Source: Verrucomicrobiota bacterium
Lineage (GTDB): Bacteria > Verrucomicrobiota > Verrucomicrobiia > Limisphaerales > JAHDYP01
Assembly: GCA_023383055.1 (NCBI GenBank)
Contig: JAHDYP010000013.1
Location: 1 to 64,000, forward strand
DNA length: 64,000 nt
Reading direction: 5' to 3'
The notes under the pieces were generated by a model. It was not told the origin of the DNA, ran no database searches, and saw only the letters and a list, made by a program, of their open reading frames with translations. This document shows, piece by piece, positions 2,884 to 11,408 of the stretch. The first letter of the stretch is position 1. Every line of letters starts with the position of its first letter. A program made the position numbers and the translations under genes.

Positions 2884-5055
2884 ATGCAAACGTTCCTTAT
2901 CGTGCTGGCGGTGATGGCCGCCCTGGTCGCCCTGGGCATCTCCATCCTCTGTATTCGCAAGATTCAGCCCGGACGCGCGGGGGTGAAGACCGGTTGGGGC
3001 GGGTTGAAGGTCTCGTTTGACTGGATGGTCCGGATCCCGATGGTCCAGACCTATCACATCGTCGATATCTCGGTGAAGAAGCTCGAGATCCAGCGGAAAG
3101 GCAAGGATGGCCTGGTCTGCAAGGACAACATCCGGGCGGACATCGCGGTGGCGTTTTACATCCGGGTGGACGCGACGGTGGAAAGCGTGCGGAAGGTGGC
3201 GCAGATGCTGACGCCGGAGCGGGTATCCGATCTGAACCAGCTGCGGGAGTTGTTCGAGGCGAAGTTTTCGGAGGCGCTCAAGACGGCGGGCAAACAGATG
3301 GAGTTCCACGAGTTGTTCACCGAACGGATCAAGTTCCGCGATCAGATCCAGGTGACGATCGGCAAGGACCTGGACGGATTCCTGTTGCAGGACGTGGCGA
3401 TCGATTATCTCGAGCAAACGCCGCTCGACCAACATGACCCGAGCAACGTCCTGGACGCCGAGGGCATCAAGAAAATCACCCAAATCACCCAGCGCGAACG
3501 CGTCCTCTCCAACGAATTCTCCCAGCGCGCCCAGGTGCAGGTCGAGAAGGAGAACGCCGACGCCGACATTGCGAAACGCGAGCAGCGCCGCCGCAACGAG
3601 GAGGACACCGCCAAGCAGGACCGCGCCATCACCGAAGCCAAGGCCAACGAGGAAGCCGAAGCCCGCAAGGTGATCGAAGCCCGCCGCCAGGAGGTCGAAG
3701 CCCGGCGGCTTCAAACCGAGGAATCGATCCGGCTGCGGACCGAAGACATGAACCGGGCGGTGCAGGAACGCGAGTTCACCGTCCGCAAAGAGAAACAACG
3801 GCTCGAGCAGGAAGCGGTTCAGGAGGGCGAAGAGGCCCGCGTGCGGCGCGAGCGCACGGTGTCGCTAGCCGAGATGGACAAGAACGTCAAGGTGGCCGAG
3901 GCGGGGGTCGAGGTGGAACGGAAGCGCGCCGTCGTGGTGGCCGAACAGAAGGCCGTAGTCCAGCAGGAGGAGGAGAAATTGAACATCGAGGCGCGGATGA
4001 CGGCCGAGCGGGTTCGCGAGGTGACGTTGATCGAAGCCGAGATGAACGCGAAACGCGACCAGGTGGAGAAGGTCGTGGCCGCCGAGGCCCAGAAGGAAGC
4101 CGACCGCCACCTGGCGGAGGCGGGGAAGATCAAGATTGTCACCGCCTCGGAGGCGACACGCGAGGCGGCGACGCGCGACGCCGAGCGGCTGCTGACGCTG
4201 GCCGAAGCCGAGGCCCGGGCTTCCGAGAAGAAACGGCATGCGATGGAACAGGAGGCCGAAGGCCGGGCGGCGCAGGAAGCGGCGGCGGGATTGGCGGAGG
4301 CCAAGGTGATCACGGCCAAGGCGGGCGCCAAAAAGATCGATGCGACCGCGGTCCGGGAGATGGGCCTGGCCGAGGCCGAGGTGATCAACGCGAAGGGCAA
4401 TGTGACGGCCGAGGTGACCGAGAAACAGGCCCAGGCCGAAGCCGAGGGACACAAGGACAAGGAGATGGCGTCGGCGGCGGGCATCGAGGCGCGCGGGGTG
4501 GCCGAGGCGAAGGGGATCGAGGAGAAGGCGAAGGCGATGAAGCTCCTGCACGAGGCGGGCCGGCAACACGAGGAATTCCGGCTGCAACTGGCGAAGGAAC
4601 GCGACGTCGAACTGGCCGCCATCCGGGTGGAGAAAGATGTGGCCGAGGCCCATTCGCGGATCGTGGGCGAGGCGCTTAAGCACGCGAACATCGATATTGT
4701 GGGTGGCGAGAACGACTTCTTCGAGAAGGTGGTGCGGGCGGTCGGGAGCGGGAAGGCCGTCGACCGGTTGATCGCGAACAGCGCGACGCTGGCGGACATC
4801 AAGGAGACGTTCTTCAACGGCGATCCCGAGCATTTCAAGGCGCAGTTGCGGCAGTGGGTGAAGGACTTCGGGATCGGCTCGGAGGACCTGAAGAACCTGA
4901 CCGTGGCGGCCCTGCTCGCCAGGCTGCTGGCGTCCACGAAGGATGCGTCGTTGCGGAACCTGTTGAAGTCGGCGCAGGCGATGGCCCGGGCGAGTGGCGT
5001 GGCGGACGTCCCCGCGGCGGCCGCGCTCGTGGCAACTCCAACGGTCGAGGCTTGA
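2884..5055 (+). CDS. Flotillin-family protein (SPFH/band-7 domain + long Glu/Ala-rich coiled coil)
   Basis: ATG at 2884 gives MQTFLIVLAVMAALVALGISILC (TM anchor). An SPFH core follows (VKTGWGGLKVSFDWMVRIPMVQTYHIVDISVKKLEIQRKGKDGLVCKDNIRADIAVAFYIRVD). After it comes a ~350-aa EA/K/R-rich coiled-coil 'flotillin' region and a conserved C-terminal tail. The upstream in-frame part of the 2599 ORF is junk. Confidence 0.85.
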   Translation: MQTFLIVLAVMAALVALGISILCIRKIQPGRAGVKTGWGGLKVSFDWMVRIPMVQTYHIVDISVKKLEIQRKGKDGLVCKDNIRADIAVAFYIRVDATVESVRKVAQMLTPERVSDLNQLRELFEAKFSEALKTAGKQMEFHELFTERIKFRDQIQVTIGKDLDGFLLQDVAIDYLEQTPLDQHDPSNVLDAEGIKKITQITQRERVLSNEFSQRAQVQVEKENADADIAKREQRRRNEEDTAKQDRAITEAKANEEAEARKVIEARRQEVEARRLQTEESIRLRTEDMNRAVQEREFTVRKEKQRLEQEAVQEGEEARVRRERTVSLAEMDKNVKVAEAGVEVERKRAVVVAEQKAVVQQEEEKLNIEARMTAERVREVTLIEAEMNAKRDQVEKVVAAEAQKEADRHLAEAGKIKIVTASEATREAATRDAERLLTLAEAEARASEKKRHAMEQEAEGRAAQEAAAGLAEAKVITAKAGAKKIDATAVREMGLAEAEVINAKGNVTAEVTEKQAQAEAEGHKDKEMASAAGIEARGVAEAKGIEEKAKAMKLLHEAGRQHEEFRLQLAKERDVELAAIRVEKDVAEAHSRIVGEALKHANIDIVGGENDFFEKVVRAVGSGKAVDRLIANSATLADIKETFFNGDPEHFKAQLRQWVKDFGIGSEDLKNLTVAALLARLLASTKDASLRNLLKSAQAMARASGVADVPAAAALVATPTVEA

Positions 5056-5085
5056 ACGGCGGCCCAGCGGCCCCGGGAGTGACGC

Positions 5086-10566: not shown

Positions 10567-11408
10567 AAAAAGTCATCCACCGGATCCAGGCCTTGGGCGA
10601 GAAAGCCGCCCAACTCAAACACGTGGTCGAGGGCGCTCCCGCGGTGGCGACGGGCATTCGCGATGCCGTGGCCGTGACCGCCGGCCAACTGCAGCAACTG
10701 CGGGCCGATGTCCAGGCCGGCGTGAGCGGCCTGCGCGTCGAGGACGAAGACCGGTTGCTCGCCGCGCTGCGCGAGGTCGGCACCAGCACCGAGCTCCTGG
10801 AAGAGGCCGGGTACGCGTTGGGCGGCGTGGATGTCGAACTGGGGCTGCTCCGGCGCATCGTGGTGCGACTCGAGAAGCTCGAGGACGTGGGGCTGGCGCG
10901 ACTCCGGGCGATCCACGCCTCGAGCGCGGGACGCTTCACCGTTCAGGCACTGTTGAACGCCCTCATCAAAGCGGAAGAGATGGCGGCGAAGGTCGACTTG
11001 CCCGACCTGACCTATCGGCAGTTGATCGTGGATGTCGGTCCGGCACCGACGGTCCGCGTTTGCTGGCGACCAGACGCGGTCGTGGTGGACGAGGAACCGG
11101 TGGCGACCAGACCCGCGGCGGCGGCGGCGACGGTGCCGCCGGTCTTGAGCGCCACCTCGTCGTTGCTGGGCAAGAGTTCCTTCTTTCAACCTCGCGAGGC
11201 TCCGCATTCGGAATCCGCTCCCGCGGTTCCCGCCGCGGCCGTGGTTCCCCCCGCCACGCCCGTCCCCGCATCGACCACGCTCGTTCCCGCCGCCGTTCCC
11301 GGGCTGTCCCTCACCACCGTCGAAGCAGAGTCGGCCCCCGGCGACTGGAAACGTGGCGCTTTGGATCGGTTCAAGCGCATGCCGGACCTCTCCAAATCCC
11401 GGCGTTGA
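10563..11408 (+). CDS. Hypothetical protein translationally coupled to the giant ATPase (281 aa; helical N-domain, Pro/Ala-rich C-terminal tail)
   Basis: Its ATG overlaps the giant gene's stop (ccATGAaaaaag, 10563-10566). The coding-strand codon bias is consistent with the neighbours. C-terminal third is Pro/Ala/Val-rich low complexity. No recognisable family. Confidence 0.6.
   Translation: MKKVIHRIQALGEKAAQLKHVVEGAPAVATGIRDAVAVTAGQLQQLRADVQAGVSGLRVEDEDRLLAALREVGTSTELLEEAGYALGGVDVELGLLRRIVVRLEKLEDVGLARLRAIHASSAGRFTVQALLNALIKAEEMAAKVDLPDLTYRQLIVDVGPAPTVRVCWRPDAVVVDEEPVATRPAAAAATVPPVLSATSSLLGKSSFFQPREAPHSESAPAVPAAAVVPPATPVPASTTLVPAAVPGLSLTTVEAESAPGDWKRGALDRFKRMPDLSKSRR

Follow-up and report, generated by a model that had tools for sequence, protein, structure and literature searches.

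The organisation and repair of bacterial membranes are ascribed to flotillins and PspA, and no ATPase is known to control the assembly of either. The stretch of DNA analysed here (64,000 nucleotides of contig JAHDYP010000013.1 from a Verrucomicrobiota bacterium, assembly GCA_023383055.1, positions 1 to 64,000; in the following, the window) carries a flotillin gene (g1) followed by the genes of a giant protein with an AAA+ module (g2) and of a small soluble protein (g3), and a preliminary description of this DNA had proposed the trio as an unrecognised system. The locus raises the question of whether these genes form a new system and of what a flotillin could do beside so large an ATPase. We found that the locus is a variant of a module known from one comparative-genomics paper, in which the YqiJ gene has been lost and the orphan g3 gained. 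The identity of the parts and their assignment to the module are, judging from the homologies reported below, very probably correct; that the locus represents the form taken in one lineage by a widespread module associated with the envelope, in which a YqiK-type flotillin and a giant DUF3686-coiled-coil-AAA+ ATPase are joined by a small partner, appears to us rather probable, and an envelope-stress module is its most likely nature.

The flotillin-giant ATPase operon had already been described in silico by Ravi et al. 2024 (mSystems; preprint 2020; PMC11237479), so it cannot be called unrecognised. These authors reported CesT/Tir-PspA operons that include a flotillin, a beta-propeller-coiled-coil-AAA+ ATPase and a three-transmembrane (3TM) protein of the YqiJ/YuaF type, found that abbreviated operons, in which flotillin and YqiJ may or may not be joined by the ATPase, occur widely, and noted an occasional PLD hydrolase gene in proteobacterial versions; the helix-turn-helix (HTH) regulator of the Bacteroidota operons was annotated with a protease domain. 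They proposed ATP-dependent, chaperone-like membrane dynamics and drew an analogy with ESCRT. The published module has the same order and orientation of flotillin and giant ATPase as the window, and the gene order published for Dokdonia donghaensis is, gene for gene, that of the other Flavobacteriaceae loci collected here; from this identity of gene order in related Flavobacteriaceae we infer that the Dokdonia ATPase is the equivalent of g2. The window differs in that it has no YqiJ, CesT or PspA, and has instead g3, which PMC11237479 does not describe. Our literature search found no experimental work on the flotillin-g2 operon and no paper on DUF3686 (PF12458). The function of the giant protein is indeed uncharacterised, as had been supposed, the family bearing only the name of a Pfam domain of unknown function (DUF) and an unfounded label, 'DNA repair ATPase'.

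To follow the flotillin-g2 pair in other genomes, a species scan was run with one genome per species, and the best 80 loci were examined together with loci from protein look-ups and from a plasmid collection; the neighbouring open reading frames (ORFs) were clustered and then searched with profiles. Relatives of g2 were present in at least 588 species. The search of its N-terminal 681 residues against 1.84 billion cluster representatives gave 276 clusters at 50% identity (E ≤ 1e-30), and most full-length members of the family are 1600-1900 amino acids (aa) long. The flotillin-g2 pair is conserved across nine phyla (Verrucomicrobiota, Planctomycetota, Bacteroidota, Desulfobacterota, Clostridia, Fibrobacterota, Pseudomonadota, Actinomycetota and Deinococcota). 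In 61 of the 64 loci whose sequence extends 3.2 kb or more upstream of g2, a flotillin gene directly precedes g2; because the pair recurs in so many informative loci of many phyla, the arrangement is far beyond chance and the linkage is tight and ancient. The usual order, seen also in a Streptomyces locus, is a YqiJ-like membrane protein of ~220 aa, the flotillin and g2. On the Pseudomonas plasmid pQBR103, YqiJ-SPFH-g2 is preceded by genes for PspA, a rhomboid protein, DUF2491, DUF350 and DUF1190 proteins and glutathionylspermidine synthase, and in the Bacteroidota the module is preceded by the gene of a divergent HTH regulator and by those of a CesT_Tir_1 protein and PspA, PspA and CesT_Tir lying immediately upstream of YqiJ-flotillin-g2 in 17 loci. 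The association of the module with Psp-type envelope-stress genes is recurrent. The neighbour-joining (NJ) tree of g2 follows the phyla. The module was found in 13 of 72,556 plasmid records, some of them megaplasmids, and phage records gave no match to it.

The first of the three proteins, g1, is a divergent flotillin, homologous to YqiK of E. coli and with a single predicted N-terminal membrane anchor. Compared with the E. coli reference sequences of YqiK and YqiJ, which were taken from NC_000913.3, g1 matched YqiK in BLASTP with E = 4e-38 and 32% identity over 442 aa, in an alignment that starts at residue 9 and runs through the SPFH core, and the profile of the g1 family matched YqiK by hhalign with a probability of 100% (E = 2.6e-42). 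The names given to g1 by NCBI and JGI are likewise flotillin/YqiK. The term 'canonical flotillin', used at first for g1, is nevertheless too strong, since g1 has no Pfam or NCBIfam match and just 7 of 54 members of its family reach the Pfam Band_7 profile. The transmembrane (TM) anchor, the SPFH core and the Ala/Glu-rich region that had been read from the sequence were all recovered from hydropathy, composition and the YqiK alignment: the only TM-like segment (hydropathy windows ≥ 1.6) covers residues ~1-28 and aligns with the YqiK N-terminus, the core spans ~30-210, and residues ~210-555 are predicted helical, rich in Ala and Glu (20% and 19% over 211-555) and aligned with the helical region of YqiK. 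A conserved C-terminal domain begins at HEEF (residue 562). Against solved structures, the search with the single sequence was empty, and that with the g1 profile returned only a coiled-coil match to QmcA.

The pairs of an NfeD-like protein and a flotillin known as YqiJ-YqiK in E. coli and YuaF-FloT in B. subtilis are among the closest known systems, g1 being a full-length homologue of YqiK and the upstream gene of the related loci homologous to YqiJ; however, no giant ATPase gene follows yqiJK in E. coli, g1 exceeds YqiK in length by 170 aa, and the window has no YqiJ. The upstream ~220-aa protein matches Pfam YqiJ_N and is homologous along its full length to YqiJ of E. coli, with an E-value of 2.2e-13 in hmmsearch and a probability of 96.5% in hhalign. 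Of the 61 loci with a flotillin gene, 52 carry YqiJ, in each directly upstream of the flotillin gene, nine carry g3, the window included, and none carries both: the two are mutually exclusive third partners in this set. As far as could be found, this strict either-or pattern is new. The loci with g3 form one Limisphaerales-type clade in the g2 tree, sister to the YqiJ-bearing Limisphaerales/Verrucomicrobiales loci, so the simplest reading is a single swap of YqiJ for g3 in one lineage. The absence of an NfeD-type partner, which the preliminary description had pointed out, is thus real at this locus, the YqiJ profile giving nothing over the 64-kb window, but it is specific to the g3 clade and no trait of the family, 52 of the 61 related loci carrying the NfeD-like YqiJ. 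In the same way, the trio does hold together as a conserved unit, being kept in relatives down to 36% g3 identity and across differing flanking contexts, whereas the core of the module at large is flotillin and g2 plus YqiJ, with g3 confined to one clade. The C-terminal extension of g2 gave tblastn matches only in L001-L006 and L082-L085; a co-variation of this extension with g3 was considered and holds only in part, as L007 and L008 have g3 without the extension and L005 has the extension without g3.

The orphan third protein was found beside g2 in all 12 of the retrieved loci that carry it, downstream or, in L007 and L008, convergent. Its family comprises 27 proteins in a search of 5.8 billion sequences, none of them named or with a Pfam domain, and sequence, solved-structure and fold searches returned no relative outside the family itself. 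The AlphaFold2 (AF2) model predicts a long N-terminal helix (residues 2-57) and a compact alpha/beta domain (62-170), with a predicted local distance difference test score (pLDDT) above 90 over residues 60-170, followed by the Pro/Ala-rich tail that had been noticed in the sequence (174-257), which is predicted to be disordered. A diverged PspA, CesT, YqiJ, PLD or flotillin fragment was considered for g3 and rejected (hhalign probabilities ~0.1%), and given this result the Pfam PspA_IM30 match (E = 0.036) was treated as long-helix noise. The conserved basic helix at the C-terminus has a moderate hydrophobic moment (0.3-0.56) and a low hydrophobicity; a membrane-targeting helix was considered for this motif, to be preferred in no way to a protein-docking peptide, which is equally possible. 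As for the neighbours of g3, in L007 (9259-10113) and L008 (16622-17326), where g3 is on the strand opposite to g2, a PLD-like gene (PF13091, HKD) adjoins g3 and diverges from it, and PLD-like genes (PF13091) also lie near the module in L020, L023 and L071. A gene with DUF434 and DUF5616 follows g3 in L001 (14377-15098), L082 (10955-11686) and L083 (4043-4774) and is absent from the window.

The giant protein g2 belongs by Pfam to PF12458 (DUF3686, E = 1.7e-161), whose title is 'ATPase involved in DNA repair', and carries PF25472 (DUF7902, E = 6.5e-25) further on. No TM-like window was seen in its hydropathy profile and it is predicted to be soluble. Residues 1-~40 are of low complexity and lineage-specific, homologues aligning only from about residue 39; the Ala/Thr microsatellite noticed there by the preliminary description was confirmed. 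The beta-propeller nature of DUF3686 would follow from the assignment by Ravi et al. (PMC11237479); in our hands the domain had no solved homologue in a PDB profile search, and its self-comparison by hhalign gave no internal sequence repeats or propeller blades. The preliminary description had read more than 700 aa of g2 as helical or coiled-coil sequence; inside this putative coiled coil lies the conserved middle region (~860-1211), which matched no known family and whose PDB profile search was empty. As had been proposed, the protein has a single AAA+ module, with one C-terminal core at residues 1303-1432 recognised by the Pfam profiles AAA, AAA_5 and AAA_22, and no vWA, SMC hinge, dynamin or STAND domain was found in it by Pfam. 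Its invariant columns were judged on alignments of 63 and 40 sequences: K1313, D1375, D1376, N1423, R1441 and R1557 are invariant across 63 diverse homologues, and the AAA+ region reaches a mean column identity of 71% between phyla (~60-75% identity). The module keeps all the residues of nucleotide binding and hydrolysis, and its ATPase site is intact.

To which clade of AAA+ proteins this module is nearest can be said only by resemblance. Sequence comparison of g2 with solved structures matched only the Walker A region (p97, Rix7, RuvB), and the classic AAA profile PF00004 covered positions 1-38 of 131, again the Walker A region, whereas AAA_5 spans the entire core (27.9 bits) and is the best full-core Pfam match. 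A structure model of residues 1197-1636, of low confidence on a shallow alignment (mean pLDDT 61), has a beta-hairpin before the sensor-1 strand (model residues 201-214), and Foldseek with this model gave NorQ/CbbQ as the best matches (E ~4e-4, low TM-scores), then ClpB/Skd3, MCM, RuvB and Lon. With the MoxR family (NorQ, CbbQ, RavA) g2 shares the AAA_5 match and, as far as the low-confidence model goes, the best fold matches; the hairpin is a prediction of this model. The MoxR proteins have the motif 'ATxNPxE...LxDRF', which 'AGNPxxE...PDMLxNR' of g2 resembles. On the other hand, g2 is about six times the size of the stand-alone MoxR proteins (~300 aa), has a D-D Walker B, has no vWA domain or partner (none was found in g1-g3 or the recurrent neighbours) and gives marginal scores. 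The 'MoxR/dynein-type' assignment made at first would thus stand as a reasonable resemblance and not as membership. From SMC, RecN and SbcC proteins g2 differs in having one contiguous AAA+ P-loop module near the C-terminus and no split ABC head.

The g2 family is an obvious candidate for an ATPase that controls flotillin or PspA assembly, because it is nearly always encoded beside a flotillin and its AAA+ module is so similar across phyla. The solved SPFH proteins form large oligomeric scaffolds, and g1 would form a scaffold of this type on the cytoplasmic face of the inner membrane. The giant ATPase would oligomerise through its AAA+ module, dock on the flotillin scaffold by its N-terminal DUF3686 and helical regions and, at the expense of ATP, build, reshape or take apart the scaffold, or the clients within it, when the membrane is under stress. 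In the Limisphaerales-type clade the role of YqiJ would have passed to g3 as a soluble, lineage-specific adaptor, whose structured head would bind one partner and whose tail, through two conserved short motifs, another partner or the membrane. The membrane-microdomain remodelling machine suggested by the preliminary description fits the gene contexts, with their Psp-type envelope-stress neighbours, but its mechanism is inferred only; we regard the particular mechanism, in which the ATPase remodels the flotillin scaffold or its clients with g3 as adaptor, as a tentative proposal by analogy. More doubtful still is the broader idea that the DUF3686-AAA+ giant could be the missing dedicated ATP-driven remodeller of bacterial membrane scaffolds, a functional counterpart of Vps4 on SPFH cages (and on PspA polymers where present), with g3 as a non-orthologous replacement of YqiJ. 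If it were true, the role of NfeD proteins in SPFH systems would be an exchangeable adaptor function and not a fixed membrane component. The either-or pattern of YqiJ and g3 is a natural experiment on the role of the NfeD-type partner, and cultivable carriers of the g2 family (Flavobacterium, Hymenobacter, Streptomyces, Vibrio, Proteus and, through pQBR103, Pseudomonas fluorescens SBW25) make its role in flotillin and PspA dynamics testable.

Several observations weigh against the remodelling of a flotillin scaffold. Three loci (L018, L021 and L058) carry g2 with no flotillin gene within 10 kb. The Walker B of the family is always D-D (hhhhDDIQH; window 9208-9213) and never D-E, in 63 of 63 aligned homologues, so that the module may hydrolyse ATP slowly or act as a switch and not as a motor. 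The g2-family alignments show no aromatic pore-loop motif after the INGP strand, a feature of the sequences that argues against a classical threading unfoldase, and, with the model at a pLDDT of 61, the clade assignment and the oligomeric state of the AAA+ module are tentative. As regards the exchange of partners, L005 (Verrucomicrobiota metagenome-assembled genome GFS_5502), although of the window type, has no g3 downstream of g2 (~6990), and YqiJ could be encoded elsewhere in the g3-type genomes, our search having covered the 64 kb of the window. Finally, the members have no known physical interaction, ATPase activity or phenotype. In L005 we also observed that the flotillin gene and g2 are separated by ~1.1 kb of other sequence.

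Among the alternatives, g2 could be the bacterial counterpart of Vps4, with polymers of PspA, a member of the ESCRT-III superfamily, as its true substrate and the flotillin only as a membrane platform. In its favour are the PspA genes next to the module in the Bacteroidota loci and the PspA block on pQBR103, and a membrane-shaping polymer is likewise paired with an AAA+ ATPase in ESCRT-III-Vps4 (archaea, eukaryotes) and PspA-PspF (Proteobacteria); the ESCRT analogy is that of Ravi et al. (PMC11237479), and a 2025 review, which describes the roles of the Band-7 partners of PspA as undetermined, names no bacterial Vps4-like ATPase and states that such an ATPase appears to be absent in bacteria. 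Most loci, however, have no PspA within 10 kb, and the window has none within 64 kb, whereas the flotillin is nearly constant. Moreover, Pfam found in g2 no MIT domain, no second region of homology of the classic clade and no features of sigma-54 activators, the classic-AAA and p97 matches stop at the Walker A region, and g3 is by hhalign unrelated to PspA. We consider this explanation improbable.

Slightly less probable still is membrane protein quality control, by which g2 would extract and unfold damaged membrane proteins inside the flotillin scaffold, in the manner of FtsH in HflK/C. In that complex an SPFH cage surrounds a membrane AAA+ protease, and the likeness lies in the genetic or physical coupling, at the inner membrane, of an SPFH scaffold and an AAA+ machine, a coupling known here from gene order alone. 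Besides this precedent, the nearby envelope-stress genes and the fold matches to unfoldases (ClpB/Skd3, Lon, FtsH), obtained with the low-confidence model, would agree with such a role. Yet g2 differs from FtsH in its lack of a TM segment and of a protease domain and in its AAA+ type, the conserved core of the module includes neither a protease domain nor a protease gene, no aromatic-hydrophobic pore-loop motif stands at the expected place, and the fold matches come from a poor model, so that this role is unlikely for g2.

An anti-phage or conflict system, with the giant ATPase as a membrane sensor of infection that would activate an effector such as a PLD-type nuclease, is very unlikely. The PLD-like genes beside g3 or near the module, its presence on some megaplasmids and the weak PADLOC matches of g2 (LmuB 1.2e-4, mad8 1.3e-4) could be taken in its favour, but in PADLOC-DB 2.0 the matches of g2 are partial and ≤ 19.6 bits, g1 and g3 have none, the PHROGs search was unconvincing, and the conserved core has no effector. 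Furthermore, the g2 tree follows the phyla and the AAA+ module is strongly conserved across them, unlike fast-evolving defence genes, and the module is missing from phage records, scarce in plasmid records and, in the window, set among ordinary chromosomal genes.

That g2 is a DNA repair ATPase whose adjacency to the flotillin is incidental is most unlikely. The public names ('DNA repair ATPase', 'ATPase involved in DNA repair'), the weak RuvB_N and clamp-loader matches around the P-loop and the HTH regulator divergent from the Bacteroidota operons could be taken in its favour, but the names rest on the Pfam DUF title alone, our literature search found no paper tying DUF3686/PF12458 to DNA repair, the RuvB matches are confined to the generic P-loop region, Pfam and NCBIfam found no nuclease, DNA-binding or SMC/ABC-type head domain in g2, and in 61 of 64 loci the gene is linked to those of two membrane proteins. 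The misleading public name calls for correction, and g3 merits an entry as a new orphan family associated with the module.

The coordinates of the features are collected in Table 1. On re-reading the sequence, the positions first given for the trio, for its ATGA and for the AAA+ motif GYGKTT were exact, and the motifs LCVDDIQ and VVVVMAGNP were as first described. The three genes are co-directional and both flanking genes are on the minus strand. The spacer between g1 and g2 is 30 nt long and contains GGGAG, and the start of g3 overlaps the stop of g2 in an ATGA at 10563-10566, by which g3 is predicted to be translationally coupled to g2.

Table 1. Positions of the trio, of its domains and motifs, and of adjoining genes in the window; the last line refers to related loci.
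Feature	Position	Strand	Description and basis
g1	2884-5055	+	ATG 2884, TGA 5053-5055; 723 aa; YqiK-type flotillin (by homology)
g2	5086-10566	+	ATG 5086, TGA 10564-10566; 1826 aa; DUF3686-DUF7902-AAA+ ATPase (predicted)
g3	10563-11408	+	ATG 10563; 281 aa; predicted soluble protein, clade-specific
Ala/Thr-encoding microsatellite of g2	~5165-5197	+	(GCGACG)x5, perfect, in-frame; sequence; Tandem Repeats Finder (TRF) period 12, 2.8 copies, 100% matches
DUF3686 domain of g2, residues 58-500	5257-6585	+	Pfam; beta-propeller repeats per Ravi et al.
DUF7902 of g2, residues 623-704	6952-7197	+	Pfam; inside long helical region
Conserved middle region of g2, residues ~860-1211	7663-8718	+	Alignment; invariant G-x-H-x-F-x-x-N, YR..LA, Y..G.HD.D
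AAA+ module and helical lid region of g2, residues ~1260-1640	8863-10005	+	Invariant columns, Pfam
Walker A GYGKTT of g2	9013-9030	+	Motif; invariant K1313
Walker B LCVDDIQ of g2	9199-9219	+	Motif; invariant D1375-D1376
VVVVMAGNP of g2	9331-9357	+	Motif; sensor-1 N1423
PDMLANRAD of g2	9388-9414	+	Motif; R1441
QGSYRNMN of g2	9742-9765	+	Motif
C-terminal extension of g2, residues ~1665-1826	10078-10563	+	tblastn; window-type clade only
Conserved SSFF(E) motif in g3 tail	11175-11186	+	Family alignment
Conserved basic C-terminal helix DWKRGALDRFKRMPDL of g3	11343-11390	+	Family alignment; consensus DW(K/R)xxALDRFKRMPDL
Leucine-rich repeat (LRR) protein gene	1132-2547	-	Flanks trio upstream
Fasciclin-domain gene	12351-15701	-	Flanks trio on g3 side; 1116-aa product
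DUF559/PDDEXK_3 genes	L030 9530-9952; L032 818-1258; L033 9401-9958; L038 9501-9920; L055 9544-9918; L080 76-501		

The genes around the trio in the window are ordinary chromosomal ones. Proteins identical to g1 and g2 are recorded for a Verrucomicrobia metagenome-assembled genome, and the closest relatives are Limisphaerales-type. A profile search found no YqiJ, PspA, CesT or PLD gene in the 64 kb. Between g3 and the fasciclin-domain gene (11409-12350) only short ORFs are present, none with a family match, and the end of the fasciclin-domain gene has a strong terminator-like hairpin.

In several unrelated loci, small nuclease-like genes of DUF559 (PF04480) or PDDEXK_3 (PF13366) separate the flotillin gene from g2 or immediately precede g2; they resemble selfish insertions at one shared intergenic spot. 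In three Bacteroidota loci (L028 7084-9295, L064 4687-6896 and L070 6277-8643), g2 is followed by genes for a DUF4178 protein, a Ser/Tyr/Gly-rich lipoprotein-like protein and a DUF350 membrane protein, DUF350 being common to these three downstream blocks and to the PspA block of pQBR103. Within the fasciclin-domain gene of the window a direct repeat was reported (13068-13367 and 14376-14675, spaced by 1308 nt, 98% identity over 300 nt), which indicates that a unit of ~436 aa in this secreted-type protein was recently duplicated in tandem. Two further genes of the window encode unusual fusions, namely an FeeM-like N-acyl amino acid synthase/GNAT with a class-V aminotransferase (55891-58206, plus strand, 771 aa) and an MGDG-synthase domain with a PHP domain (25963-28065, plus strand, 700 aa), and both stand amid lipid and envelope genes (lipid A acyltransferase, PAP2, epimerase).

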